Source of the DNA: a virus
IMG/VR virus record: IMGVR_UViG_3300037044_000228
Span: 35,650 to 99,649 of that record
Length of the DNA: 64,000 bases
Direction: 5' to 3' (one strand)
How positions within the stretch are numbered: position 1 is the first letter of the stretch; the number at the start of each line of letters is the position of its first letter. The notes beneath the pieces are model-generated. The model saw nothing but the letters and a program-made list of their open reading frames with translations, made no database searches and had not been told where the DNA came from. Below are positions 3,900 through 22,777 of this stretch, piece after piece. Position numbers and translations under genes: made by a program.

Positions 3900-5264
3900 A
3901 TGTTCATCGGTGGAATTCCCAAGGTCGTCGCGCAGCAGATCGCGACAGCGCTCGACGGCTCGACCGCGACCGACGTCTATGTGTGTTGCAGCGGGTCCTT
4001 TCGCACCGAGCGCACGATCTGGCAGCAGCTGCCCGGCGCACGCGTGCACGGCAATGACGTGAGCCTCTATTCCAGCGCGATCGGTGAGTGGCTTGCGGGA
4101 GGCGCGCTCGACTGCGAGTTTACCGACGCGCTTGCGCCGCTCGAGAAAGCGATCAACGCCGGCGTCGGCGCGTCGGCGCGTCGGCGCGCGGCGGGCGCTG
4201 TGTATGCGGCCGAACTCGCGCGCTTTGCGACCGGCAAGATGAATGCGTTCAAGGAGGCGCATGTCGCGCATCTGATGAACGGGGCCGAAGCGGCGCTCGA
4301 TGCGATCGAGGAGAAACTCGAAACCGCATGCGCCGGCGGACGCCTGGCATCTTTCCATCGGCGCGACTGGCTGGCGCACTTGCGTGATGGCGTCGCCAAC
4401 GGCGCGACCGTGGTGGCGTTCCCGCCGACCTATCGCGGCGGTTACGAGAAGACCTATGCGTGGATCGAGGCGAACGCCCGATGGACGCCGCCGACCTATG
4501 AGACATGGGACCCCAAGAACCTCGACGGTGTCGTGCGCGAGCTCGCGGCAGGCGGGGCCGACTATTGCATTCTCGCTGACCGAAAGCTGGAGGGCGTTGA
4601 GCCCGACACCATGTTCCAGGCGCTCGGGAAGCGCGTCATCTATGGCTACACGCACAAGGGCCGGCCGCAATGGGCGAAGGCCGCGTCGACGGGCAAGCCG
4701 TTCAACTACAAGCCCCTCGACACGTCGAAGATCACCAAGGACTCAGTGGTCGAAGTGACGCCGATCGACGGGCCGCGCGCGCTCTACATTCGCACCGTCT
4801 ATATCAAGAACACGATCGCGCCCGCGCCGGCGCTGCAGAACTACTTCATCTTCATCGACGGCATGCTCGCGGGCGTGCTGGGCTACAGCGTGAACAAGAT
4901 GCCCGGCGCGGTGGGCAAGAACAAGGAGCACCTGATCTCGTGCTACCTCATGTGCGACGTCTCGCTCTCGCGCGAGGGCAGGATCTCCAAGCTGATCGCG
5001 CGACTGGCGCTCAACCGCGACGTGGTCGGGCACTTCGGTCGGCGCATGCTGCAGCCCTACAAATACATCGTCACGACGGCGTTCTCCGATCACCCGGCTT
5101 CGATGAAGTACCGGGGTATCTGGGAGCTTCTGAGCCGCAAGGAAGTGGAGCCACCGGGACGCGGCTTCAATCTGCAATACGGGGGGCACGTCATCAATGA
5201 GACGCCGGCCGAGGCTTTCGGCTGGTGGTGGAGCAAACACAGTGACAAAGCCCAAGGCAAATGA
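3900..5264 (+). CDS. DNA modification protein: adenine-methyltransferase-like N-terminus with possible GNAT-like C-terminus
   Basis: VYVCCSGSF...HGND (SAM-binding-like) and FPPTY (DPPY-like); C-terminal FIFIDGMLAG...TTAFSDHPASMKYRG. Confidence 0.6.
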   Translation: MFIGGIPKVVAQQIATALDGSTATDVYVCCSGSFRTERTIWQQLPGARVHGNDVSLYSSAIGEWLAGGALDCEFTDALAPLEKAINAGVGASARRRAAGAVYAAELARFATGKMNAFKEAHVAHLMNGAEAALDAIEEKLETACAGGRLASFHRRDWLAHLRDGVANGATVVAFPPTYRGGYEKTYAWIEANARWTPPTYETWDPKNLDGVVRELAAGGADYCILADRKLEGVEPDTMFQALGKRVIYGYTHKGRPQWAKAASTGKPFNYKPLDTSKITKDSVVEVTPIDGPRALYIRTVYIKNTIAPAPALQNYFIFIDGMLAGVLGYSVNKMPGAVGKNKEHLISCYLMCDVSLSREGRISKLIARLALNRDVVGHFGRRMLQPYKYIVTTAFSDHPASMKYRGIWELLSRKEVEPPGRGFNLQYGGHVINETPAEAFGWWWSKHSDKAQGK

Positions 5265-6276: not shown

Positions 6277-6996
6277 ATGGCGACGACTCGAAAGACGGCG
6301 GGCACTGGCAAGAAAGCGGCGACGGCGCGCAAGGGGGCTAAGGCCCGTGCGCGGGCGGCGTCGAAGGGAGGCGCGCAGGCGAAGGCCGGCGGCTCCACCC
6401 GCCCGAAGAGCGTCAAGGCCATGGCGGCGTCCGCGGCACAGGGGCCAGCGGACGCCGCCGCACCACATTCCCCACCGCGCGATGCGGCCCACGCTGCGCC
6501 AGACTCCACGATCAAGACAACGGGCCTGAAACCGGGACCGCGTTCCGCGCAGCGCAGCGGCGATCATGTGCGCGCCGACGGGGCTGAGACCAAGGCGAAC
6601 GAGAAGTACCCGGTTGAGCTCGTGGAGATGGCGCTGCGCACTTCGGCGGGCGTGTATTCAGTCGCGGCCGAGAAGATCGGGTGCGCGCGCAACACGATCG
6701 CGAACTACGTCAAGCGCTACCCCTATCTCGCCGATGCGCTGACCGAGATCGAGGACGGCAACGTCGATCTGGGCGAAGCGCAGCTGATCTCGGCCATGTC
6801 GAAGGGCGAGTCGTGGGCGGTGCTCTTCTACCTGCGCTGCAAGGGCAAGCGGCGCGGTTACACCGAACGGCACGAAATCACCGGCGCCGGGGGCGGGCCG
6901 GTCAAGGTGGCCTCAATCGACTTGAGCAAGCTGAACCTCACCGATGCCCAACTCGCTGTCCTCGATCAAATCGCAGGCGCCGCAGCACTCGGCTGA
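6277..6996 (+). CDS. terS: terminase small subunit (basic N-terminus, HTH)
   Basis: HTH VAAEKIGCARNTIANY, FYLRCKGKRRGY, EITGAGGGP; lies directly upstream of terL. Confidence 0.75.
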   Translation: MATTRKTAGTGKKAATARKGAKARARAASKGGAQAKAGGSTRPKSVKAMAASAAQGPADAAAPHSPPRDAAHAAPDSTIKTTGLKPGPRSAQRSGDHVRADGAETKANEKYPVELVEMALRTSAGVYSVAAEKIGCARNTIANYVKRYPYLADALTEIEDGNVDLGEAQLISAMSKGESWAVLFYLRCKGKRRGYTERHEITGAGGGPVKVASIDLSKLNLTDAQLAVLDQIAGAAALG

Positions 6997-8683
6997 GTGG
7001 CTGGCGAGCGAGCAGGGGCGTATCGACGTCGACCGCGAGATCTGTCGCCGGTCCATGATCGCCTTCGTGCGCAAGGCCTGGCACATTCTCGAACCGAGCA
7101 CGCCCTACGTCGAGGGCTGGGTTCTCTACGCGATCTGCGATCACTTGATGGCGGTGAGCCGCGGCGAGATCTCGCGCCTGCTCATCAACGTGCCGCCGGG
7201 CATGATGAAGTCGCTGCTCGTGTCGGTGTTCTGGACCGCTTGGGAGTGGGGTCCCCTCGGCGCGCCCGGCATCAAGACGATCACGGCGTCCTACCAGATC
7301 GACCTTGCCATCCGCGATGCGCGGCGGCTACGCATGCTGGTCGAAAGCGAGTGGTTCCAGGCGCGCTGGCCGCTGGCGATGGCGTCGGACCAGAACCAGA
7401 AGACCCGCTTCGAGAACGTCAAGACCGGCTTCCGCGCGGCCAAGCCCATCACGTCGCTCACCGGCGATCGCGGCCACCGTCTCATCATCGACGACCCGCA
7501 CTCCATCAAGACGGCGGAAAGCGACGCACAGCGCAACGAGGCGGTGCGCGAGTTTCGCGAAGCCGCGCCGAGCCGCATGGTCGATCCGACCAAGTCAGCG
7601 ATCGTCGTCATCATGCAGCGGATCCACCAGGGCGATGTGTCCGGTGAGATCATCGACCGCATCGGCGGTTACGAGAAGCTGATTCTGCCCATGGAGTACG
7701 ATGTCGAGCGTCCGTGCACGACGTCGATCGGCTTTAAGGATCCGCGCACCGAGGATGGCGAGCTTCTCTTTCCCGAGCGCTTTCCGGCCGAAGTTGTGGA
7801 GCGCGACAAGGCGGTGCTCGGTCTCTATGCGAGCGCGGGCCAGTTCCAGCAGGCGCCGTCGCCGCGCGCCGGCGGTCTCTTCATCAAGTCCAAGGTCGGC
7901 GTCATCGCCGCGGTCCCGGCGGGCTCCGTGCGCGTGCGCAAATGGGACTTGGCGGGAACCGAGAAGGGCGTGAACAAGAAGGGCGTCGCGAACGATCCGG
8001 ACTTCACGGTCGGCCTGCTCATGGCGAAGACCACCGACGGGCGCAGCATCGTCGAAGACGTCGTGCGGCTGCAGGCCTCTCCCTTCGACGTCGAACAAGC
8101 GGTGCTGCGCACGGCGCAGCAGGACCGCGCGGCGCATGGCAATTCCGTCGTCGTGCATCTCAACATCGATCCGGCGCAGGCGGGCATCCACCAGGCCAAC
8201 ACCTACACCAAGCTGCTCAACGGCTTCATCGTGAAGATGGAGCCCGAGCGCGGGTCCAAGGAGTACCGCGCATTTCCCGTCGCGGCCCAGGTCGAAGCGG
8301 GAAACGTCTTCATGGTTCCAGGGCTGTGGAACGCGAAGTTCCTCGAAGAGATCGGGCTCTTTCCGCAGGGTCGCTACAAGGACCAGGTCGACGCACTCAG
8401 CGGCGCCTACAACTTTATGAACAATCCGATGGACGGCCAGCACTTCTGGGACTGGATGATGAAGGCTGTCGCAGAGCAGGAAGCCGCGAAGGCCGAGGCG
8501 CGTGCGGAAGCGCCGGTCGACCGCGTGCCGATGCACCCGCCGGTCGGCGTGCTGTCTGCGACCGGGCGGATGGGCGACGGCTACAATCTCGATAAGCACG
8601 GCGTCATGTGGGTCAAACCGGACGACGCTCTGATCTTCGCGCGCGCAGGCTTCAGGCGCGTCGAAATCCAACAGGCTGCGTGA
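6944..8683 (+). CDS. terL: terminase large subunit
   Basis: LLINVPPGMMKS Walker A, IIDDPH Walker B, MQRIH, WDLA and FPQGRYKDQVDA nuclease motifs. Confidence 0.95.
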   Translation: MPNSLSSIKSQAPQHSAEWLASEQGRIDVDREICRRSMIAFVRKAWHILEPSTPYVEGWVLYAICDHLMAVSRGEISRLLINVPPGMMKSLLVSVFWTAWEWGPLGAPGIKTITASYQIDLAIRDARRLRMLVESEWFQARWPLAMASDQNQKTRFENVKTGFRAAKPITSLTGDRGHRLIIDDPHSIKTAESDAQRNEAVREFREAAPSRMVDPTKSAIVVIMQRIHQGDVSGEIIDRIGGYEKLILPMEYDVERPCTTSIGFKDPRTEDGELLFPERFPAEVVERDKAVLGLYASAGQFQQAPSPRAGGLFIKSKVGVIAAVPAGSVRVRKWDLAGTEKGVNKKGVANDPDFTVGLLMAKTTDGRSIVEDVVRLQASPFDVEQAVLRTAQQDRAAHGNSVVVHLNIDPAQAGIHQANTYTKLLNGFIVKMEPERGSKEYRAFPVAAQVEAGNVFMVPGLWNAKFLEEIGLFPQGRYKDQVDALSGAYNFMNNPMDGQHFWDWMMKAVAEQEAAKAEARAEAPVDRVPMHPPVGVLSATGRMGDGYNLDKHGVMWVKPDDALIFARAGFRRVEIQQAA

Positions 8684-8719
8684 GCATTCCGCTCACCTGA
8701 GTGAGAAGGGACAACCATC

Positions 8720-9397
8720 ATGACCGACGTCAAAATGAAGGCGCCTGCCGGGCTGACCGGTGCGGTGCAGACCGAATACGGCACGGTGCAGATCGACGCC
8801 AACGGCTTCGTCACCGTCGATGCACGGGTGCAAACCGTGCTGCTCGGCGCGGGCTTCACGGCTGCGGCCCTCGGCATCGGCTCACAGGCGATCGGCGCTG
8901 ACGGCGTGCCGACGTTCCGCGTGCCGATCCTGAGCTTCCGCTCCACCGACGGCGCGGTGAACGTGGCGGCGGCGGCGGGCAAGTTCGGACTCGCGGCGAC
9001 CCTGGGCACCAGCCACAACCTCGTCAGCGAGGCGGCGCAGAACAACACCAAGACCGACATCGCGTTCGCCGAGGTCGTGCTGCCCGCGAACTATGTGGCG
9101 GGGCAGGACATCGTCGTCACCATGAGCGCGAAATACACGCTCGCCGCCGGCACCGCCGGCGCGTGCACGATCGACCTGCAGGCCTACGAAGTGAGCGATG
9201 TGGGTGCGCACGGCGCCGACATCTGCGCGACCGCGGCGCAAGCCCTGACCGCAGCGGACGCGGACTATGCGTTCACGCTCACCGGAACCAACCTGGCGCC
9301 GGGCGACCGTATCGCCCTCAAGGTGACGCAGGTTATCATCGAGACCGCGAACGGCGGGACCGTGACGGGTTCCATTGCGTCCGTGCGCGTGGGCTAA
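8720..9397 (+). CDS. putative virion structural or decoration protein
   Basis: 225-aa beta-rich Ala/Gly/Thr protein between terL and portal, with RBS. Confidence 0.6.
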   Translation: MTDVKMKAPAGLTGAVQTEYGTVQIDANGFVTVDARVQTVLLGAGFTAAALGIGSQAIGADGVPTFRVPILSFRSTDGAVNVAAAAGKFGLAATLGTSHNLVSEAAQNNTKTDIAFAEVVLPANYVAGQDIVVTMSAKYTLAAGTAGACTIDLQAYEVSDVGAHGADICATAAQALTAADADYAFTLTGTNLAPGDRIALKVTQVIIETANGGTVTGSIASVRVG

Positions 9398-9501
9398 GAC
9401 CGAGCGCTGCAAGGCATGATGGGCGGCGGCGCCACCGTCGCCCATCAATCCTATCGCGCATGGGGCGGACTATTCTCACGCTGGATCTAGCCAGCGGGTG
9501 A

Positions 9502-12500
9502 GTGATGTCGAGCGACGCGCCGCGAGCGCAAACCGGGGGCAGGGCGTTCGCGCTTTCCCCGACCGTTGTGCAGGTCCGCTTTGGCGACACGCCGATGATG
9601 GCGCCCGGCGCCGGCAATGCTGCGGCCGACTGGTTCGGCCCGCTTTCTCCGATGAAGCCCGCTGCCCCGCCGTTCGTTACGGGCCGGCGCTTCGACTATC
9701 AGTCCGGCTACAACCTGCAGACCCGGGCGCGGCCCGGCGAGCTCGGCTTCGACCAGCTGCGCGCGTTCGCCGACGCCTACGACATTCTCCGGCTCGTGAT
9801 CGAGACCCGCAAGAGCCAGATGTCGCGTCTGAAATGGGCCATCCTGCCGCGCGCGCGGCCCGATGCGGCGACCATGAAGGAGGTCCAGACCGACCATCTC
9901 AACCCGATCTGCAAGCAGATCACGGACTTCCTGCGCCGCCCCGATCGCCGCCTGTTCTGGAACGACTGGCTGCGCATGGCGCTCGAGGATCTCTTCGTTC
10001 TCGATGCGCCCGCGATCTGGAAGCGGCGCAACCGCGCGGGCCAACTCTACGCGCTTGAGATCATCGACGGCGCGACCATCAAGCCGATCATCACCGAAGC
10101 GGGGCGCCAGCCCGAGCGTGGCCCCGCGTTCCAGCAGATCCTCAAGGGTCTTCCGGCGGTGGAATACGACTCGCGCGATCTGATGTACCTTCCGCTCAAC
10201 CGCAGACCGCACAAGGTCTATGGGTACGGTCCGGTCGAACAGATCATCATGACCGTCAACATCGCGCTCAAGCGCCAGATCTGGCAGCTGCAGCACTGGA
10301 CGGAAGGCAACCTGCCGCAAGCGCTTATCGGCGTCCCGGAAAGCTGGACGCCTGAACAGATCAGCGCGTTCCAGACCAACTTCGACGACCTGCACACCGG
10401 CAACATGGCCGAGCGGCGTCGTGCGCGGTTCGTGCCGGCGGCGTCGGCGAAGAGCTACACGCCCACGCACAACGACAGTGAGATGTTCGGTCGCGGCGAA
10501 GAGTGGCTGGCGCGCGTCGTCTGCTATGCGATGGGCGTCGATCCCACGCCGTTCATCCAGAGCGTGAACCGCGCGACGGCGGAAAGCGCAGCAGAAGAAG
10601 CGATCAAGGACGGCATCGCGCCCGTCCAAAGCTGGGTCAAGAACCTCGTCGACGGCGTCATCATCGACGAGTTCGGCACAAACGAAGTCGAGTTCGTCTG
10701 GCAGGACGACACGATCGCCGATCCGGAGAAGCTCACGAAGGTGATCTGCTTGCAGGTCGAGTCGGGGCTGATCTCGCTCAACGAGGCGCGCGCCGAACTC
10801 GGCAAGACGCCTGTGGATCACGCCGCGTTCAACGTGCCGATGGTGAAGACGGGCGTTGGCTACGTGCCGGTCGAACCGCCCGCGCAAGCCGACGGCCTGG
10901 GCAACATGATGGGCCCGGGCGGCGAGAACCTCGGACCGGCGCCCGCGCCAGGCGGCTTCGTCGGCCCGGGCGGTGAGATGCTTGCGCCGCCGGAAGGCGC
11001 GGCTGCGGGCGGTGAGAACGTGGCGCCGGCTGATGACGCGGGCGCGGAACCAGGCGCGGGGGCTGACGCGGAGCCGCCGCCAGACGATGAACCGCCGGAA
11101 GGTGGCGGTCCTGCTGGCGGCGGAGGCGCGCTCCCGGGCGACAACGGCGGCGGTGGCGGACCGGCCCCCGCAGCGGGCGACGACGAAGCCGCTGCTGCGG
11201 CGGCGGCCATGAGCGACGACGACCTCGCGGCAGTCGAAGAGGAAATGGCGGCGCAGGGGATCGATGTCGCCGATGCGGGCGACGGCGAGGCCGAGAGCCA
11301 GGCCGATCTCTTCGCAGCCGATGAAGACCGCGTCGTGCCTGCGGGCGCGATGACGGCAGATCAGATCGACGACGGCGGCGACGTGCGCAGCGAAACGCCC
11401 GGCGCCAACGTCGCGCCGGCGGACGTTCCCGGCGAGGGCGGCGCTGCTGGCGTGGAGGCGGAAGCCGCACCGACGGATGAACCTGGGGATGGCGACGACG
11501 AACCGCAACCGCCGCGCCCGCCGAGCAAGCGTGACGTGCGACGCGCGGCGCTTGATCGACTCGGTGCGCTTGGCGCGCTGCGTCGCGGCGAACCGGCTGG
11601 CGATCTGGCGAAGGCTGCAGAGCGCGGCGCGGACCCCGGCAAGAACGAGCGCGGGTCTGCGCGCATCTCGCGCAAGAAGGGCGGGGCGCCTTACGGCGTC
11701 AATGAGCGCGGCGACTGGCGCGACGTCAAGAGCCCGCGCATGATCCGTGGCACGCCGCGTCGCGCGCCCGATGGCAGCGGCCCGATCAATCGCGACGAAG
11801 CAGCGCTCGACGAGATGTTCAACCGCGTCACTGCCGAAAAGGAAGCGGCGCGTGATCGCAAGGCCCGGCGTGCGCAGCAACGCATGGGCGGACGTCGTTA
11901 CCTGCACCCGGATCGCACGGCGAGCGGCCGCGCCGAGATCGTGAAGGGCTTCGGCGTTCATGGCTTCTGGAACGGCACGGAGCCGCACCGGGGCGGCGGT
12001 GGCGCGCGTGGCGGATCAAGGCGCGGCGCGCAAGCGGGCGTCGGCGGCGGCGCTGCGAGCGGCGGCGCGGAAGCGAAGATCGCGGCGCATCGGGTGGCGC
12101 AACGCGCGGCGGCGACCATCGCGGCGTCAGCTGCTGCGGCTGCACCGCCGCGTCCGTCTGTGGGCGAAGGCCTTACCAGGCTCGGGCGCGGACGCTCCAA
12201 GGACGTCTATGCGCACCCGACCAACAAGAACCGCGTCATCGTTTCGATGCAACGCCACGCAGCGACCGAAGCGTTTCTCGACTTCTCTCGCGCCGCGCAC
12301 GCCGCCAAGGCGCCGATCGCGCAGCATCTCCCCAACCCGTCGGCGATCAAGGTCGAGGCGGGCGGCGTGACGTTCCAGACAGCACGCCTGCAACCGAACA
12401 CGACGCCGGTGCGCATCGGGCGCGATGAGAACGGCTTCTATCTCAACGGCCTGCCGAAGACCCACCCGCAACATGCGCCGCTGCTCGCGACCGTGACCGC

Positions 12501-13095
12501 GCTCGACAGCTATCTCAAGCAGGCGCTCCCGGGATCGCGGCACTACTTCGATCTGAGTGCGCAGAACTTCATGGTCACGCGCTCCGGCAAGATCGTGATG
12601 AACGATCCCGTCGAGGGCGGCGCGGCGATCCAGGCGCGCGCCATGGCGCCGAGCTTTCCCGCAGCGCCAGCGCGTGCGCCGGCGAGACCGAAGGCCGCTT
12701 CCGCGCCGCGTCCTGCAGCGGCGAACGCGGCTGCGGCTGCGGCCGCACAACCAGCAGCACGGCCCGCACGCGCGACGCCCACGAAGGCCGAGCAAACGCG
12801 CGCGGCGCAGTTCCGCGCCTCGGCGGGCAACGGTCTGCCTGAGTGGATGACCATGGGCACGCGGCCCGCGAAACTCGCGACGATGCGTTGGGCGGCGAAG
12901 GGCGATCCGGCGGCGATCGCGTCGCGACTGCGCTCCCTGCCGCGCGAGATCGACTTCCAGCGCCAGACGCTCGAGCGGGCGCCGAAGAGCCATCAAGCAG
13001 TGGAACGTCGTCGACTCGCGAAGCTGGAAGCCGAGCATGCCGCGTTGCGCGCCGCGCGATCGGCGTCGCGTGGCGGCGGCGGACCGGCGCGGTGA
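9502..13095 (+). CDS. portal protein with long C-terminal extension (acidic linker, tag, kinase-like domain)
   Basis: Portal core LEDLFVLDA...IDGATIKP...YGYGPVEQ...NRATAE...SLNEARAELG, followed by about 740 extra residues. Confidence 0.9.
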   Translation: MMSSDAPRAQTGGRAFALSPTVVQVRFGDTPMMAPGAGNAAADWFGPLSPMKPAAPPFVTGRRFDYQSGYNLQTRARPGELGFDQLRAFADAYDILRLVIETRKSQMSRLKWAILPRARPDAATMKEVQTDHLNPICKQITDFLRRPDRRLFWNDWLRMALEDLFVLDAPAIWKRRNRAGQLYALEIIDGATIKPIITEAGRQPERGPAFQQILKGLPAVEYDSRDLMYLPLNRRPHKVYGYGPVEQIIMTVNIALKRQIWQLQHWTEGNLPQALIGVPESWTPEQISAFQTNFDDLHTGNMAERRRARFVPAASAKSYTPTHNDSEMFGRGEEWLARVVCYAMGVDPTPFIQSVNRATAESAAEEAIKDGIAPVQSWVKNLVDGVIIDEFGTNEVEFVWQDDTIADPEKLTKVICLQVESGLISLNEARAELGKTPVDHAAFNVPMVKTGVGYVPVEPPAQADGLGNMMGPGGENLGPAPAPGGFVGPGGEMLAPPEGAAAGGENVAPADDAGAEPGAGADAEPPPDDEPPEGGGPAGGGGALPGDNGGGGGPAPAAGDDEAAAAAAAMSDDDLAAVEEEMAAQGIDVADAGDGEAESQADLFAADEDRVVPAGAMTADQIDDGGDVRSETPGANVAPADVPGEGGAAGVEAEAAPTDEPGDGDDEPQPPRPPSKRDVRRAALDRLGALGALRRGEPAGDLAKAAERGADPGKNERGSARISRKKGGAPYGVNERGDWRDVKSPRMIRGTPRRAPDGSGPINRDEAALDEMFNRVTAEKEAARDRKARRAQQRMGGRRYLHPDRTASGRAEIVKGFGVHGFWNGTEPHRGGGGARGGSRRGAQAGVGGGAASGGAEAKIAAHRVAQRAAATIAASAAAAAPPRPSVGEGLTRLGRGRSKDVYAHPTNKNRVIVSMQRHAATEAFLDFSRAAHAAKAPIAQHLPNPSAIKVEAGGVTFQTARLQPNTTPVRIGRDENGFYLNGLPKTHPQHAPLLATVTALDSYLKQALPGSRHYFDLSAQNFMVTRSGKIVMNDPVEGGAAIQARAMAPSFPAAPARAPARPKAASAPRPAAANAAAAAAAQPAARPARATPTKAEQTRAAQFRASAGNGLPEWMTMGTRPAKLATMRWAAKGDPAAIASRLRSLPREIDFQRQTLERAPKSHQAVERRRLAKLEAEHAALRAARSASRGGGGPAR
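11944..12056 (+). repeat. tag repeat copy 1 (KGFGVHGFWNGTEPHRGGGGARGG..RGAQAGVGGGA)
   Basis: Near-identical DNA at 14294-14353 and 21314-21426. Confidence 0.95.
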
Positions 13096-13448
13096 GGAAA
13101 ATTGCGCTAAACGCACATTTCTAACGCGCGTTAACCAGTCGTCCACCACTGTCGCTGCATAAGGGCATCATGCGCAGCGTGCGACAGGGGCTAAGGCCTC
13201 CCGCGCGGCGCAGTCCCCCAGAGAATCGAGCCGATCGCACCCAGCCCGCCGCGGAGCGCGCTGGCGTCGACGTTTGCGATCGAGCGCCCGCCGATCGGGG
13301 CACACACTTCGGCATGGCTGGTGACAGTTCCCGGCGCGACCGCGATCTGCGCCGCGTATGCAGGGATAAACCCGGCCTGCCGATCCTTACCGACGCGCGG
13401 CGTCCACTACGGCGACGTGAGGGCTTGCAGGTCCCTTTCGCGCCCAAC

Positions 13449-13599
13449 GGTTTCTGCGGCGGCGTGGAAGGGAACACGCATCGGCCCGTGCGGTGACGTG
13501 CGGTGTTCGAGGGCCAAGGGCTCGCGTGGGCTGCTCTGCCCATAGAGCACGCGAGTAAGCCAGCTCCTTAGCCGGGGTAACGTCCGGCCCGTAGAATCC
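13449..13599 (+). ncRNA. tRNA-like structured RNA (candidate)
   Basis: Closing stem TTCTGCGG/CCGTAGAA, D-like arm GCGTG-gaagggaa-CACGC, T-like arm GCCGGG-gtaacg-TCCGGC, internal hairpins; lies in a roughly 530-bp gap with no credible CDS. Confidence 0.5.
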
Positions 13600-13630
13600 C
13601 ACACCCACACCTGACACACGCGAGGCGAAC

Positions 13631-14386
13631 ATGCGCAAGGATGCGACGTTCGCCGCCCCTGCGTCAGCGACCACCGGTCTCGCGGCGCACGATCTCGAGG
13701 GGCAGGGTCGCAATCAGCGACGGCTCGCGCGTCTCGCGGCGCGGCGTGCGGATCCATCTTCGGGCGAGACGCGGATGGTGCTGCGTCCCGTCGCTGACGT
13801 GAACCCAATCACATCGGAAGTGTTCAACGATCTTGAGCCGCCGGAAGCGATCACGCTCCGGCCGGGCTGGGATCCCATCTCCGAGATCCCGGTCGCCGAC
13901 ACCGACACCATCGTCGACGTAGTGAGCGCGCTCGAGCAGTGCGTGCCGGCATGGCGCATACACCCTGAAACGCTCCCGCTCGTCGCGGTCCCGCGCGGCG
14001 AGATCGTCGCGCTGCAGGCGGGCGTGAAGGCCGAGAAGGTGGCGGGCATCCAGGCCAAGGCGGCGCGCGGCGACCGCAGCGGACCGCGACCGGTCGGCGT
14101 CCAGTTCAACGGGCGCACCTATGTGCGGGACGGCCACCACCGTACGATCGCGGAGCTCCGCGACGGCGCGAAGGCGGTCGAGATGCGCGTGGCGGTGATC
14201 GCCGAAGCCAAATCCCTTTCTACTCCTTCCGGGGGCAAAGACATGACCACGAGCGCGTTCGCGTCGGATATCAAGCGCGCGAGCGCCTTCGCCAAGGGTT
14301 TCGGCGTCCACGGCTTCTGGAACGGCACTGAGCCGCACCGGGGCGGCGGTGGCGGCGGCGCAGCGGACTCAGCGCGTGACGCGTGA
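13631..14386 (+). CDS. ParB-like domain protein ending in a leader plus tag (possible internal start at 14243)
   Basis: GAGG RBS; IVALQ...YVRDGHHRT ParB/Srx-like motif; ends MTTSAFASDIKRASAFAKGFGVHGFWNGTEPHR. Confidence 0.7.
   Translation: MRKDATFAAPASATTGLAAHDLEGQGRNQRRLARLAARRADPSSGETRMVLRPVADVNPITSEVFNDLEPPEAITLRPGWDPISEIPVADTDTIVDVVSALEQCVPAWRIHPETLPLVAVPRGEIVALQAGVKAEKVAGIQAKAARGDRSGPRPVGVQFNGRTYVRDGHHRTIAELRDGAKAVEMRVAVIAEAKSLSTPSGGKDMTTSAFASDIKRASAFAKGFGVHGFWNGTEPHRGGGGGGAADSARDA
14294..14353 (+). repeat. tag repeat copy 2
   Basis: aagggtttcggcgtccacggcttctggaacggcactgagccgcaccggggcggcggtggc. Confidence 0.95.
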
Positions 14387-15617
14387 AGTGCAGGATCTGG
14401 TGAACCGGCGCGCGAGCGGCGACAACCCTCTCGAGAACAAGCGCCCGGCGGATTATGCCGAGCGCAAGGCGTTCGTCGACTCGATGGCGCGGGGCTCTGC
14501 GCGCGACAATGGCAGGGCGGAGACGCGAGCGCAGCGCGCCGAATCCCGGCAACGGGCGATCGAGTCAGGACGTGCGAAGCCGTCAACGCAAGGGATACTT
14601 CCCAACCGGGGCGGTCAGCGCGCTATCGCCAACCAGGCGCGCCAGCAAGCGAAGGCCGATCGCGACGACCAGTTCCGGTCGGAGCACAACGCGGAGAGCG
14701 CGCTACGCTCGACGAGTTTCGGTCGCGGACGCGAGAGCGGTTCTGCGCGCCGGTCCGATGTCGAAGTGGCGTCCATCAATACCGCGGCAGCCACGCGCGC
14801 CGCGCGCAACGCCGAACGCCGCGAGCGCGTCGCCGACTATCTGCGCGAGCGTGGCGGGCGTCCGAAGCCGAAGAACGGCGGCGCCATCGAGAGCGCGGCG
14901 GTACGGATCGCGACACGCGAGAACGCGAAGCAGACCGCGCGCGCCGAGCAGCTGGAAGCGCGCGCCGAGAGCGCCCGGGCGCGCATGCAAGCCGCACCCG
15001 GCGGATCGTCACAGCGGATTCGTCTCAGCCAGGAGGCAGACCGGCTCAGGGCGCAGGCGCAACGCGCCCGCGATGCTGCGGAGAGCGCAGCGAACGTCGC
15101 TGGCCTTACGCGCGCGCCTGCGGCGGCGGCGCCGTCAACCGCGCCCACAACGCCGGTGCGACTCCGCGATCTCGGTCTTACGACGACAGCGCCGGCAGCG
15201 GCGAGCGCTGCGCCAGCCGCTGGCGGCAAGTTCAACGTCCAGAGCGAACTCCGCCGGCTCGAAGAGGGCGGTGCGCCCGGCACTTACTCGCCGGCTCAAC
15301 GGAGCGCACTCCGTCAAGAGATCAACGAGGCTTTGGCGAGCGCGAACAACCGTGTGACCATCGGACAAAGTGGCGACGGCGGTGGCGGACGGGCGGCGGC
15401 TCAGGCGCAACGTCTGCAACAAATCGAACGAGACCTCGCTAAACCTGCAACCACCGTCACGCGCGCCGCCGACCGCGCGGTGGACCGCGCCGCAGCCAAG
15501 CATGGCGTCGACACCGACATCGCGCGCGGCATCGCGGACGTGGCGCGGCGCGCCAATCCGCGCGCGAGCAACCGCGAGATCGAACGCCAGATCCGCGAAT
15601 ACGCGGGCCAACAGTAG
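14349..15617 (+). CDS. Arg/Ala-rich basic protein, probably the out-of-frame continuation of tag copy 2
   Basis: 422-aa ORF in the +1 frame whose annotated GTG start lies inside the tag's GGC run; shares a motif with 21260-22777. Confidence 0.7.
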   Translation: MAAAQRTQRVTREVQDLVNRRASGDNPLENKRPADYAERKAFVDSMARGSARDNGRAETRAQRAESRQRAIESGRAKPSTQGILPNRGGQRAIANQARQQAKADRDDQFRSEHNAESALRSTSFGRGRESGSARRSDVEVASINTAAATRAARNAERRERVADYLRERGGRPKPKNGGAIESAAVRIATRENAKQTARAEQLEARAESARARMQAAPGGSSQRIRLSQEADRLRAQAQRARDAAESAANVAGLTRAPAAAAPSTAPTTPVRLRDLGLTTTAPAAASAAPAAGGKFNVQSELRRLEEGGAPGTYSPAQRSALRQEINEALASANNRVTIGQSGDGGGGRAAAQAQRLQQIERDLAKPATTVTRAADRAVDRAAAKHGVDTDIARGIADVARRANPRASNREIERQIREYAGQQ

Positions 15618-15733: not shown

Positions 15734-18289
15734 ATGTCCAAGACCAATCTTGCCGTCGCAGCGCCGGCGCTCGCGATGTTCGTTCCCATCACGAAGGTCG
15801 ATGAAGAAAAGCGCCTCGTCTATGGGCGCATCACGGCGGAAAGCGTCGACCGCTCGAACGAGATCCTCGACTATGCGGCGTCCAAGCCGCACTTCGAGAA
15901 GTGGTCGCAGGGCTTTTCCGATGCGACCGGCGGGAAGTCGAAGGGCAACCTGCGCGCGATGCACAAGAACGTGAGCGCGGGCAAGTTCACCGAGATCGTC
16001 TTCAACGACGACGCCAAGGAGATCCACGGCGTCGCGAAGGTGGTCGACGATAACGAGTGGCAGAAGGTGCTCGAGGGCGTTTACACCGGTTTCTCGATCG
16101 GTGGAAAGTACGCCTCGCGCGCGCCCGACGCCGTGGAGAAGGGCAAGACCCGCTATGTGGCGCTGCCCGGTGAAGTGTCGCTCGTCGACACACCCTGCCT
16201 GCCGATCGCGACCTTCGAGTTCGTGAAGGCCGACGGCGCGTCCATGCAAAAGAACTTCGTGCCGTGGCAACCCGACAACAACACCCTGTCGGTGCGGGCG
16301 CGCGAGCTCGCCAAGGCCGCAGGCGATGAGACTGCGTGGCCCGACCACATCGGCGCCGCGCGCGAGGATCTGATCGCCAAGCGCTTCGCGGCATCGTCTG
16401 CCGAAGAGGGTGCGGCCCAGGAAAACCCCGCGACCGGCGCGGGCGGTGCGGGTGGCGAAGCGGCAGGCGAGGGCGCTGCAGCCGATGTCGCTGCTGCTGC
16501 GGCCGCTGCGGCGGACGTCGCCAAGCGCGATGAAGGTCCGAGCGCAGCCGAGCTTGGCGTGACGCAGGAATGGAAGGCCCCCGACGGGCAAGTCTTCCTT
16601 ACAAAAGCCGATGCGATGCGCCATGCATCGTCCCTCAGCCGCAATCCCGTCGCCGATGCGCTCGCGCGCGCCGATGCGGTGATGAAGGGCACAGTCGTGG
16701 CGGGCGACTATGGCGATGTCGCCTACGCCGACACCGGACTTCTCAAGGACGCCAAGCCGCGCTTTCCCATCGACTGCCCGCTGAATGTGCGCGCCTCGTG
16801 GGCGCATTTCTGCAAGGGCGCCGGCGACATGGGCTACGCCGAAGCAGAACTCACCAAGATCGCGACCGCGATCGCAACCGCATGGGTGGACATCGTCAAC
16901 CCGAACGGCCCGCCGTCGGTGGAGCAGATGGACGCCGTCGCCGATGTGGGCCTGTTTACCGATGCGCTCGCTGTGCTCGGCAAGCGCGCCTATCTCAACA
17001 CGCGTGATGGCGGCGGGAACGGCAGCTACACCGGATCCATGGCGGAAGCCTGCAGCCCGTGGAGCCATCAAGGCACGGGTCTCAACTTCGTGCACCAGAT
17101 CGCCTCACTCGTGAGCGATGCGGTGCGCGCGTCCAACCAGGCCGCGCAACTTGACGGCGAAGACAGCCCGATCGCAGCGCAGTCGCGCGACATGCTCGCG
17201 GCGACCGCGACGCTGCTCGCGGAAGCCACACACGGCGAAGTGGCGCGCATCCTCGACGAAGTGGAAGCGTTCGACGGCGATCCCGATGCGGAGGGCATGG
17301 AAGAGTTCGCCGACATGGAGGACGCCCAGAAGCTCGCGGCCGACATCGTCGATCTCGTGAAGGCCGACGACGTGCTTCTCGATGCGATGGATGAGATCGC
17401 CGAGCAGCGCGAGGCTGGCTATCTCGTCAAGTTCCAGGAGTGCGTCGGCGCGCTTCCGGCCGACCGCAGCGACGACGCGGCGGACACGCTGGATCTCGTC
17501 GGCGGCGGGTTGAGCAAGATGGCGGACGCTGCGGCGCCGGCCTTCCTGTCACGCGGCCTGCTCGCCATCGCGAAGATGAGCGATCACGTCGCGTCGTTCT
17601 CCGATCTCGTCGCCGGACTGCGCGAATCCGGTCTCGCAAAAGGGACCGACCCGCTTCTGGTGGCGAACGATATTGTGGAGACCCTCGGCCAGATCGTCAT
17701 CGCCATGGCGCATGACGAAGTCGCCGAGATCCATGGCGAGATCGACGTCACGAAACTCGATGCGGCGGACCAGTACGGCAAGGCGGCAGGCGAGCTCTTC
17801 GAACTCGTGAAGGCCGACACCGAAACACTTGAGAAGGTGGGCGCGCGCAACAGCAAGACCGACAAGGCCATGATCCAGTCCATCCACGACTACGCCGAAA
17901 AGCTCGGCGCGGCGTGCGGCGTGGAGAAGGCCGCAGGCGGCGAGGGGGAGGGCGATCTAGCGAAGGCGGACGATCCGGTGAAGGCCGAGAACGCGGCGCT
18001 CAAGAAGAGCGTCGACGAAGCGGTCGAGGGCATCAAGAAGCTCACCGACAAACTCGCCGAGCAGGACGCGACGATCAAGAAGCTGAGCGAACAGCCGCAG
18101 CAGGGCGGACCGGTGCGCACCGATTTGAACAAGGGCGGCGGTGGCGCAAGCGGCGTCGATCAAGAGCAGCTGACCGCGTACCTCGCGAAGTTCGCGAAGA
18201 TGACGCCCGATCAACAGGCGACTGAAGTCATCAAGATGCAGCAGCTGCAGCCGCAGTCGTTCACCGCGCGCATGGCCCCGGCAGGCTGA
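15734..18289 (+). CDS. prohead protease/scaffold (XkdF-like protease, DUF6582-like domain, coiled coil)
   Basis: ITKVDEEKRLVYG...NLRAMH...WQKVLEGVYTGFSIGG...EVSLVD; YADTG...RFPID...VRASW; AGGAG RBS. Confidence 0.85.
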   Translation: MSKTNLAVAAPALAMFVPITKVDEEKRLVYGRITAESVDRSNEILDYAASKPHFEKWSQGFSDATGGKSKGNLRAMHKNVSAGKFTEIVFNDDAKEIHGVAKVVDDNEWQKVLEGVYTGFSIGGKYASRAPDAVEKGKTRYVALPGEVSLVDTPCLPIATFEFVKADGASMQKNFVPWQPDNNTLSVRARELAKAAGDETAWPDHIGAAREDLIAKRFAASSAEEGAAQENPATGAGGAGGEAAGEGAAADVAAAAAAAADVAKRDEGPSAAELGVTQEWKAPDGQVFLTKADAMRHASSLSRNPVADALARADAVMKGTVVAGDYGDVAYADTGLLKDAKPRFPIDCPLNVRASWAHFCKGAGDMGYAEAELTKIATAIATAWVDIVNPNGPPSVEQMDAVADVGLFTDALAVLGKRAYLNTRDGGGNGSYTGSMAEACSPWSHQGTGLNFVHQIASLVSDAVRASNQAAQLDGEDSPIAAQSRDMLAATATLLAEATHGEVARILDEVEAFDGDPDAEGMEEFADMEDAQKLAADIVDLVKADDVLLDAMDEIAEQREAGYLVKFQECVGALPADRSDDAADTLDLVGGGLSKMADAAAPAFLSRGLLAIAKMSDHVASFSDLVAGLRESGLAKGTDPLLVANDIVETLGQIVIAMAHDEVAEIHGEIDVTKLDAADQYGKAAGELFELVKADTETLEKVGARNSKTDKAMIQSIHDYAEKLGAACGVEKAAGGEGEGDLAKADDPVKAENAALKKSVDEAVEGIKKLTDKLAEQDATIKKLSEQPQQGGPVRTDLNKGGGGASGVDQEQLTAYLAKFAKMTPDQQATEVIKMQQLQPQSFTARMAPAG

Positions 18290-20604: not shown

Positions 20605-21249
20605 ATGGCCGATCCACTCATCGACCTCGCCAACCTTGCGGCGGTGAAGACGTACCTGACAGCAGCGGGGCTCGCGCAGCCCGACGATGCGGTGCTCGAG
20701 CGGCTTGTGACAGCGGTGAGCCAGCAGATCCAGAGCCATCTCAATCGCCGGCTGGTGCGCCAGTCCTACACGCAGACCTTCAACGGCCATGGGCGCAACG
20801 CGCTCTATCCGCCGCAATTCCCGATCCAGGCGGTGTCATCGGTCACGGTGAACGGGCGGGTGGTGAGCGCGGCGAACGGACCGACGGGCGCGGGCTATGT
20901 GTTTTCCGAGCAAGCGATCTATCTGCGCGGCGGCGCGTTCGATCGCGGTATCCAGAACGTCGTCATCGCCTACGAAGCGGGCTACAACCCGCTCCCTGCC
21001 GATCTTGTGCAGGCACTCCACGGCGCGATCGGCGCGCTGACATCTGACGAGTTTTCCGTCACCGGGCAGGGCATCCCCAAGGGGGTGTCTTCGTACTCGG
21101 CTGGCGACCATTCCATTTCTTTCGGCGGCGGCGCAGCGGCGGCGGGCTCGAGCGCGAGCGGCGATGCGATGCTGCTGCCGCTTGATGGCACGACGATCGC
21201 GCAGCTGGCGCCGTATCGGCGCGTGCACGCTGTCGATCTTGGCCGGTGA
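20605..21249 (+). CDS. head-tail connector/adaptor protein
   Basis: LAAVKTYL...DAVLERLVTAVS...NVVIAYEAGY..PADL pattern. Confidence 0.75.
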   Translation: MADPLIDLANLAAVKTYLTAAGLAQPDDAVLERLVTAVSQQIQSHLNRRLVRQSYTQTFNGHGRNALYPPQFPIQAVSSVTVNGRVVSAANGPTGAGYVFSEQAIYLRGGAFDRGIQNVVIAYEAGYNPLPADLVQALHGAIGALTSDEFSVTGQGIPKGVSSYSAGDHSISFGGGAAAAGSSASGDAMLLPLDGTTIAQLAPYRRVHAVDLGR

Positions 21250-21259
21250 GGCGAAACCC

Positions 21260-22777
21260 ATGAGCGACCGCAAGACTTTCGCCAGCGCAGTGAACCGCGC
21301 GACAGCCTTCTCGAAGGGCTTCGGCGTCCACGGCTTCTGGAACGGCACGGAGCCGCACCGGGGCGGTGGTGGTGCGCGTGGCGGCGCGCGGCGGGGCGCG
21401 CAAGCGGGCGTCGGCGGCGGCGCTGCAACGCCTGTCGCCAGCGCAGGCGCGCAAGCCAAGGCCGATGCGGTGCGGGTCGCGCAACGGCAAGGTGCGGTGG
21501 AAGTGGCGCGTGCGCCGGCGACTCCAGCCGCAGCGTCGGCGCGTTTCAGTGCGCGGGATGAACTTTCGCGTCTGGAAGCGGGCGGTGCGCCGCGCAAACT
21601 CCGAACGCGCCAGCAGGAAGCGCTCATGCGCGAGGCGATCGCCACGAGTCGCGTGCGCAACAACGAAGACCCCAAGGTGAGCGCGATCATATCGTCGCTC
21701 GGCGGCAACAACGGTACGAAGCTCCCGATCTATGCGGGCGGTCCGAGACAGGCGCCTGCGCCGGCGCGTGCCGCCAGCGCGGCAGCGGCCGGACCGAACG
21801 CCGCGGCGATCGATCGCGTCGCCAACAACATGCACGATGCATGGCGCAAGGAGTTCGTCGCGGCCAATGGCGCCGGGGCGCAACGCTGGAAGCCGGTGAA
21901 CCCTGAGAGCGCGGCATGGATCGCGGCCAACCCGCGCGCGATTCCGAAGACCCAGATCCGGACCAATCCGGAGACCGGTCAGCAGGAAATCAACATCGCG
22001 GGGCTACGCAACAAGCAGCTTCCGCCGAACCAGCACGGCAAGGAAAACGCCGACGGCGCGCGTCATGCGGTCGAGACGGTCGCGCGCAATCCGCGCGCCA
22101 GCGTCGACGAGCATGCAGCGGCGGTGCATCAAGCGTGGCTCGCGCGGAACGGCTCATGGGCGCCGGCTTCGCAGAAGGTGCCCTACAATCGTCTGTCGGA
22201 TGCCGACAAGGAAAAGGACCGCGTTATCGTCCGCGCGGCCATGCGCGCGCTCGGCGTGAAGCCTGAGCCCACTACACCGGCGCGTGCGGCGGCGAACGCT
22301 GCGGCGGGCGCGGCTAGATCCAGCGCGAGCGGCGGCGCGACTTCCCTGTCAGCGGCTCGACGCACTCTCGACGAGGCGCAAGAGCGGTTCCGTGGCGCGT
22401 CTGCGACGTACCGCGACGGCGGCGGCAGTGCGGAATCGGTGGCGAACGCCAACCGCGCGCTGCAGAACGCACAGGCGGCATGGGCGCGCGCGCGCACCGA
22501 GAACGCGGCGCGGTCAACGGAGATCAAACGCGCGCCCGGCGAGAGCCGTACCGTGGCGTATCTGCGTGCGGCCGAGGGCAATCTCTCGAGCACACAACGG
22601 ATCGTGCAGTCCATGGCGTCGCAATCTCGAGCGGAAGTCGTCGCGGTCGCGCGCGAGCTCGGCTTGCCGGTGCGCGCCAACACCACGAAGGCGAACGCTC
22701 TCGCGATGATCTCTGGCCGTGCGGCTAAGAGCGAGTCCGACGCGGCGTTGAACGAGCGCATCCGCAACGGCGCGTGA
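21260..22777 (+). CDS. tagged basic protein with RyR-like domain (putative head cargo)
   Basis: ATG 21260 with GAGG RBS; leader plus tag; VHQAWLARN...KVPYNRLSDADKEKDR. Confidence 0.8.
   Translation: MSDRKTFASAVNRATAFSKGFGVHGFWNGTEPHRGGGGARGGARRGAQAGVGGGAATPVASAGAQAKADAVRVAQRQGAVEVARAPATPAAASARFSARDELSRLEAGGAPRKLRTRQQEALMREAIATSRVRNNEDPKVSAIISSLGGNNGTKLPIYAGGPRQAPAPARAASAAAAGPNAAAIDRVANNMHDAWRKEFVAANGAGAQRWKPVNPESAAWIAANPRAIPKTQIRTNPETGQQEINIAGLRNKQLPPNQHGKENADGARHAVETVARNPRASVDEHAAAVHQAWLARNGSWAPASQKVPYNRLSDADKEKDRVIVRAAMRALGVKPEPTTPARAAANAAAGAARSSASGGATSLSAARRTLDEAQERFRGASATYRDGGGSAESVANANRALQNAQAAWARARTENAARSTEIKRAPGESRTVAYLRAAEGNLSSTQRIVQSMASQSRAEVVAVARELGLPVRANTTKANALAMISGRAAKSESDAALNERIRNGA
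21314..21426 (+). repeat. tag repeat copy 3
   Basis: About 113 bp nearly identical to 11944-12056. Confidence 0.95.

Follow-up and report, generated by a model that had tools for sequence, protein, structure and literature searches.

The locus described here raises the question of whether a phage portal protein may end in an active protein kinase and, if so, what such a kinase would do there. The gene concerned lies at 9502-13095 of the 64,000-nucleotide stretch that was analyzed (hereafter, the window), which forms the right-hand 64 kb of the 99.6-kb provirus record IMGVR_UViG_3300037044_000228, a metagenome-derived record of IMG/VR with an estimated completeness of 78%. A preliminary description of this DNA had read the gene as a portal fused to a kinase resembling gp0.7 of phage T7 (hereafter, T7K), with its lysine relocated as in WNK kinases, and had suggested that the kinase is delivered into the host together with the phage DNA. 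Our analysis found the fusion to be real and conserved and the terminal domain to be a kinase fold homologous to T7 gp0.7, an assignment well supported by profile comparison and modeling. We further infer from the sequence that the domain is catalytically competent, with its phosphate-anchoring Lys moved from strand beta3 to the start of strand beta2. The reading that we consider best is that of an effector kinase that is active and carried in the virion, and we give it about an even chance of being correct. The layout of the open reading frame (ORF), together with the evidence for each part, is as follows.

9502-13095, + strand: portal-kinase ORF of 1197 aa, an open frame with a GTG start and an ATG next to it at 9505
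9502-10899, + strand: portal core, aa 1-466 (PF04860 at aa 139-434, E 1.1e-17; phrog_2662, E 5e-68)
10900-11540, + strand: acidic Gly/Ala/Pro/Asp/Glu-rich low-complexity linker, ~aa 467-680 (from the translation; boundaries approximate)
11541-11943, + strand: basic region (RAALDRL..., PRM-x-RG-x-PRR, RDR-x-ARRA), conserved with the homologous protein P0006 (alignment)
11944-12003, + strand: first of three copies of the 20-aa tag KGFGVHGFWNGTEPHRGGGG (six-frame motif scan)
12004-12159, + strand: Gly-rich spacer and short helix (AEAKIAAHRVAQ), common to P0006 and a second protein, P0005, where it lies 5' of the kinase domain
12160-12627, + strand: minimal T7K-like kinase domain, aa 887-1042 (AlphaFold2 (AF2), hhalign, Foldseek, VIA and ESM Atlas)
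12184-12210, + strand: glycine-rich loop (G-loop) G895-R-G897-R-S-K900-D-V-Y903, with K900 at 12199-12201 (alignments)
12241-12243, + strand: V914, in the place of the canonical beta3 Lys, which is K93 in T7K (ungapped spacing)
12550-12567, + strand: catalytic loop D1017-L-S-A-Q-N1022 (D195...N200 in T7K), with D1017 at 12550-12552 and N1022 at 12565-12567 (alignment to T7K)
12604-12612, + strand: D1035-P-V1037, the DFG-equivalent "DPV" (213-215 in T7K), with N-D-P invariant in the family
12628-12906, + strand: Ala/Pro-rich disordered linker (predicted local distance difference test score (pLDDT) 30-42, model of aa 815-1197)
12907-13092, + strand: C-terminal basic helical hairpin (helices with pLDDT 81-87, same model)

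The portal-kinase fusion is genuine, as P0006, a metagenomic protein of 1218 aa, is colinear with it over the full length, as the coding signature is continuous and as the kinase has no ribosome-binding site of its own. P0006 runs through portal, acidic linker, basic region, Gly/His/Trp-rich stretch and kinase, with an identity of 52% for the whole protein and 56% for the kinase alone, the acidic linker being the part that differs in both length and sequence in the alignment of the two proteins. A protein identical to that of the window is recorded on two contigs (P0004). The G+C content at third codon positions remains at 0.75-0.88 along the ORF, and the signature of the kinase segment, 0.66, 0.47 and 0.87 at the three codon positions, is that of the portal core. 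Between aa 652 and 900 there is no in-frame start preceded by a Shine-Dalgarno sequence, for which reason we rejected the idea that the kinase is made separately by internal initiation. The fused frame of the preliminary description thus stands. One could still suspect that assembly or gene calling joined a separate kinase gene to the portal, given that the record is a provirus derived from a metagenome. However, with an independent protein of the same architecture, the exact protein on two contigs and a continuous coding signature that lacks an internal ribosome-binding-site start, such an artefact is very improbable.

The kinase assignment draws on profile, structural and single-sequence comparisons. 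The family profile used for hhalign was built from six members and matched T7K with a probability of 92.3% (E 5.6e-7), in an alignment of 139 columns that begins at the G-loop and ends at DPV. The AF2 run, also of six sequences, gave a model of aa 887-1042 with a pLDDT of 91.3 and a predicted template modeling (TM) score of 0.85, in which the elements follow the order beta1-beta2-beta3, alphaC, beta4-beta5, two further strands, a long alphaE, the catalytic loop and short strands leading to DPV. The best matches of this model in BFVD by Foldseek were T7-like phage kinases of Xylella, Pantoea, Klebsiella, Yersinia and Ralstonia (E 3e-8 to 1e-6, TM 0.63-0.70), and among the PDB matches listed by Foldseek there were only kinases, with HopBF1 and OspG first and eukaryotic-type kinases after them. 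VIA, which is independent of Foldseek, returned protein-kinase-like folds in 47 of the top 50 rows (the remainder being SAICAR synthetases), with Z scores of 8.8-9.3 to MPS1, Stk1 and PLK4 over model residues 1-154, always from the N-lobe to DFG. In the ESM Atlas, the cluster with PF27024 (Phage_T7_kinase) adjoins the domain with a score of 0.95. We consider the fold and family well supported since profile, AF2, Foldseek and Atlas agree; the Z scores alone would be middling.

Single-sequence matches were weak and colinear with this picture. The G-loop is matched by PF10707 (YrbL-PhoP_reg; E 0.004), the part with the catalytic loop and DPV is matched, weakly, by phrog_15752 (T7 kinase family; E 0.012) and the N-terminus is matched by another kinase PHROG, while two family members show weak colinear Pfam matches to APH (E 0.002). 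A tblastn search of phage genomes pointed to Klebsiella phage cp31 (Przondovirus), in which the gp0.7 locus aligns with 95% of the query at 24.5% identity (E 0.2), and the identity of the domain to T7K itself is ~25%. A search of PDB sequences with the single domain gave no match, and with the profile gave only BMPR2 (E 0.06), the alignment of which was used for residue register only. The T7 gp0.7 pattern from which the preliminary description argued is accurate, as V01146 reads LGNG...YSHP...NRVIK...PN...FDMHSGNIM...TDPV, and the strings it quoted from the portal ORF are all present in the translation of 9502-13095, from L894 (nt 12181) to V1037 (nt 12612). The likeness it noted is well beyond chance by hhalign, AF2 and Foldseek, and the structure prediction does give a kinase fold.

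Homology to T7K should not be mistaken for orthology. By homology, fold, G-loop, D-x4-N and DPV the domain belongs to the T7K family, but it departs from that family in the beta3 Lys and in gene setting, and we therefore file it as a divergent sister branch. In the AF2 model, the kinase domain stops at DPV, with no further C-lobe. In the model of aa 815-1197, disordered stretches flank the domain on both sides and the helical hairpin follows. A C-lobe contributed by the C-terminal tail was ruled out, as ~95 disordered residues lie between the tail and the domain. BLASTP of aa 1043-1197 against T7K revealed no similarity, and a counterpart of the T7K shut-off/DNA-binding domain was not detected; the T7K homologues of prophages and jumbo phages also lack this C-terminal domain (PMC13645617).

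The active site was examined in a domain alignment of 15 family members, T7K and the Klebsiella cp31 kinase. All 15 members have the G-loop G-x-G-x-x-K-x-V-[YF], with an invariant Lys in the place of the third Gly, and none has the beta3 Lys, reading VIV, VVV or VFV where T7K has VIK. In T7K and the cp31 kinase it is the other way round: the loop has Ser, and beta3 has the Lys. The second loop Gly is invariant in the family, and G895 and G897 are both present here. From this second Gly to the beta3 position there are 17 residues, ungapped, in both T7K and the portal kinase, so that V914 stands at K93 and K900 at S79 of T7K. In the weak profile match, the same Lys is aligned with the third Gly of GRGRYG, the loop of BMPR2, and in the AF2 model K900 is the first residue of strand beta2, while V914 lies in beta3. 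The two substitutions that the preliminary description had pointed out, namely Val for the beta3 Lys and a Lys in the G-loop at the position used by WNK kinases, are thus properties of the whole family. There is a precedent for activity with such an arrangement, as WNK1 is active with Lys233 from beta2 replacing the beta3 lysine (PMC4718504). A literature search found no paper on a WNK-like phage kinase.

D-x4-N and N-D-P-[VLF] are likewise kept in 15 of 15 members, the catalytic Asp, the Asn and the DPV Asp, which is the metal-binding one, being invariant down to ~28% identity. In T7K, the G-loop residue G76 is essential, with G76F catalytically dead, and DPV is a signature motif (PMC13645617). 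As the invariant Lys pattern is reciprocal and the Asp, Asn and Asp are invariant over such distances, the domain would be an active enzyme rather than a dead relic, since a reciprocal pattern without exceptions is to be expected under selection for catalysis. The same site can be read differently, as a pseudokinase that binds nucleotide or a partner without phosphotransfer and gives the portal arm a structural, docking or sensing function. Every member lacks the canonical beta3 Lys, the alphaC Glu is not invariant and there is neither a C-lobe nor an activation segment, all of which would suit a pseudokinase. Nonetheless, the conservation of the three catalytic residues, a compensating Lys that is invariant at the position used by WNK kinases and the activity of T7K with the same truncated fold (PMC13645617) make a pseudokinase rather unlikely. 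A kinase that acts on a small molecule or nucleotide instead of on proteins, similar to APH or choline kinase, is improbable. The two weak APH matches in Pfam and the presence of aminoglycoside phosphotransferases and YihE among the structural matches (Z ~7) point in this direction; however, the APH matches span only the generic catalytic loop, and the nearest relatives in sequence and structure are T7-type protein kinases.

The family to which this domain belongs was collected by an exhaustive search of 1.84 billion cluster representatives, which yielded 17 relatives at E up to 1e-3, with two more added by a profile search. Stand-alone homologues were found by word search in 0 cases with the single domain and in four with the profile, and the stand-alone kinase module occurs in proteins of 158-237 aa. 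Searches of genome contigs and IMG/VR with the kinase alignment and with the single domain gave no related locus. The module also occurs in larger proteins. It is found in P0007, a 1281-aa phage protein that also matches a large head-and-packaging PHROG, and near residue 2000 in two metagenomic giants, P0009 (3934 aa) and P0013 (3300 aa), both of which start with LPD22, a domain that marks large polyvalent proteins. P0009 carries, in addition, a Zeta-toxin/AAA domain at 1192-1337. Most of the length of P0009 and P0013 is without a Pfam match. In P0005 (791 aa), the kinase stands behind a different N-terminal region and is preceded by the leader known from the portal arm, a Gly/His-rich stretch with the AKIAAHR helix. 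The N-terminal region of P0005 has a DGHHR motif, reminiscent of ParB/Srx-type domains, and no Pfam or PHROG match. Because it is found stand-alone, in P0005, in P0007 and in LPD22-led giant proteins, the kinase module is mobile.

The portal end of the fusion is equally informative. The core shares 54% identity with the portal of Brevundimonas phage vB_BpoS-Polewnik, with similarity ending at aa 466 (VGYVPVEPP), and beyond this junction the Polewnik portal (774 aa, L005:5962-8286) carries a MuF domain (PF04233). The annotation of this Polewnik gene says no more than "putative portal protein". With the portal alone as query no related locus was found, and with the alignment of two portals there was a single one, L004. 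Here the nearest IMG/VR relative (7986-11231, 1081 aa, 46% identity) has MuF (PF04233) at the same junction. The MuF signature (H-x-C-R-C in a real frame) is found nowhere else in the window, and the kinase arm thus replaces the MuF of the relatives and was not added to it. As Polewnik and L004 bear MuF where this phage bears the kinase arm, head-internal modules are exchanged in this clade at the C-terminal end of the portal.

What could a kinase accomplish in this place? In portal structures, the C-terminus faces the capsid interior. The acidic linker, basic region, tag, minimal kinase, disordered linker and hairpin may together form a C-terminal cargo arm, and, since kinase and portal are one polypeptide, a procapsid would hold up to 12 kinase copies. 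The role that we consider most likely is that of a pre-made effector that phosphorylates proteins of the host soon after infection begins, much as T7K does as the product of an early gene. For this, the kinase would have to come free of the portal and travel with the DNA. T7K has been described as hyper-promiscuous, acting on Ser, Thr and Tyr and weakening many defence systems by mass phosphorylation (2026 study, PMC13645617). Polyvalent proteins and effectors fused to MuF or to the portal have been argued to be packaged and injected (Iyer et al. 2017, PMC5512222). Delivery as an effector is favoured by context only, namely a portal swap site that bears MuF in relatives and the same module in LPD22 polyvalent proteins. 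A more far-reaching version, in which a small, hitherto undescribed branch of the T7K family independently reached the WNK solution and became a mobile capsid-delivery module, with about a dozen copies per virion set free beside the exiting DNA and phosphorylating host defence proteins before phage transcription starts, as a virion-borne counterpart of the early-gene strategy of T7, is offered only tentatively.

Several points weigh against an active, delivered kinase and should be considered alongside this proposal. The family is tiny, with 17 cluster representatives, and no member was found in 50,697 phage records by tblastn with three members as queries. Direct HMM matches to kinase families fall under curated cut-offs, and the VIA Z scores (8-9) are only middling, with SAICAR synthetases scoring alike. 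The alphaC Glu (TEAF) is common in the family without being invariant, and T7K has no alphaC Glu. The geometry of K900 relative to the ATP site is derived from sequence register and secondary structure alone. Finally, domains tethered to a portal need not leave the capsid. The kinase may thus be active while still tethered or in the producing cell, for instance in late or assembly modification or from free portal subunits, which we regard as unlikely, though far from negligible. A late head operon encodes kinase and portal in a single polypeptide, and portals can have moonlighting host-directed roles (PMC13483052). On the other hand, polyvalent proteins and MuF at the same junction are architectures of packaged and injected cargo (PMC5512222), and the long disordered linkers suit release or unfolding.

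The 20-aa tag in the arm is of relevance to a virion-carried kinase. The tag is encoded three times in the window, always on the + strand and found by six-frame scan: at 11944-12003 in the portal arm, 72 aa before the kinase; at 14294-14353, at the end of the ORF 13631-14386; and at 21314-21373, near the start of the ORF 21164-22777. Each copy is preceded by hydrophobic-x-Lys, copies 1 and 3 are near-identical for ~39 aa, and the tag is predicted to be disordered in the model of aa 815-1197. These features fit an element that head cargo proteins would share for addressing or processing, and the kinase might hypothetically be released by proteolysis. Around copy 2, in 14294-15617, the frame ends at 14386 after the tag, and a 422-aa ORF in another frame (14349-15617) crosses a run of Gly codons and has no Pfam or PHROG match. 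A frameshift, a sequencing error or two genes are possible explanations of this break. The basic region upstream of the first tag (11541-11943) is also without a family match in Pfam and PHROG.

Pfam and PHROG scans place the portal-kinase gene in the late operon of a contractile-tailed phage, at ~3.9-40 kb of the window, which has a G+C content of 66.5%. The operon also contains sheath, tape measure and baseplate genes. The genes on either side that define the setting, assigned by Pfam and PHROG, are as follows.

6944-8683: large terminase
15734-18289: 851-aa protein with an N-terminus of the S78-type head protease

With its place between the terminase and head-protease genes, the kinase is not encoded by a stand-alone early gene as T7K is. 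The protease match of the ORF at 15734-18289 is weak (PF14550, E 4.5e-4; phrog_9427) and its C-terminal part is long and acidic; the product is probably a protease-scaffold fusion. In L004, an 823-aa counterpart of this ORF directly follows the portal gene. Upstream of the terminase, 3900-5264 encodes a 454-aa protein with matches to DAM-like-phage1 (Pfam, E 1e-52), GNAT-phage-like (E 3e-41) and phrog_7858. Downstream of the portal gene there is a gap of ~530 nt (13096-13630), in which Rfam at E up to 1 found nothing credible, and ARAGORN found no tRNA in the whole window.

Among known systems, T7K (PHROG 15752, PF27024) is the closest. The two kinases, both of phage origin, have in common the order and spacing of the motifs LG-x-G, Y-x-HP, NRVI, PN, FD-x4-N-x-M and DPV, as well as a minimal fold that ends just past DPV. 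They differ in the anchoring residues, T7K having K93 in beta3 and S79 in the loop where the portal kinase has Val and Lys, respectively. They differ also in setting, T7K being a stand-alone early gene and the portal kinase the tail of a portal in the late operon of a myovirus-like provirus. T7K homologues outside T7-like phages have been reported as sporadic, with those of prophages rare and uncharacterised, and portals are not mentioned in that report (PMC13645617).

The likeness to WNK kinases is confined to the Lys, which comes from the beta2/Gly-loop at the third Gly of G-x-G-x-x-G, with none in beta3. WNKs are otherwise eukaryotic kinases of full size that have an activation loop and sense chloride, and WNK1 reached only rank 30 among hundreds of kinase matches in the Foldseek search of the PDB. 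The likeness is one of convergence, and thus analogy, not kinship. HopBF1 and OspG, the top PDB matches in Foldseek (E 8e-5 to 1e-3), are stripped-down effector kinases of ~170 aa but differ in structure (TM 0.38-0.45), in sequence (11-16% identity) and in being type III-secreted into eukaryotic cells. Both use the canonical beta3 Lys.

In terms of architecture, the nearest parallel is found in the systems of Iyer et al. 2017 (PMC5512222), in which an enzymatic domain is likewise fused to the portal in a terminase-portal head operon, relatives carry MuF at the same site and domains are likewise reused in giant LPD-bearing multi-domain proteins. The portal fusions described there are of PBECR, 2H and InPase domains and so differ from the kinase found here, and we did not find a portal-kinase fusion described. 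The same authors defined a separate clade of C-lobe-less kinases in polyvalent proteins of Verrucomicrobia, Chlamydia and Bacteroidetes, with T7K cited as a functional precedent, which has lost the C-terminal subdomain but kept canonical active-site residues (PMC5512222). The signatures of this clade are a Glu before strand 2, a Gln in the last N-lobe strand and an insert between His and Asp. By description, the portal kinase shares with it the loss of the C-lobe but differs in that the beta3 Lys is not intact and no His precedes the catalytic Asp (YFD).

Kinases of the T7K family and effectors fused to portal or MuF are thus both known, and what is new is the WNK-like Lys and the use of such a kinase as portal-fused or polyvalent cargo. 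If the proposed role is true, a temperate myovirus-like phage would have found a second route to the end served by T7K, through protein delivery instead of early transcription, and the catalogue of portal- and MuF-fused effectors would extend to kinases. The family-wide Lys swap offers a clean natural experiment on how ATP anchoring in kinases can be rewired. Domains of this kind escape standard annotation, as the Pfam and PHROG matches fall below cut-off here.

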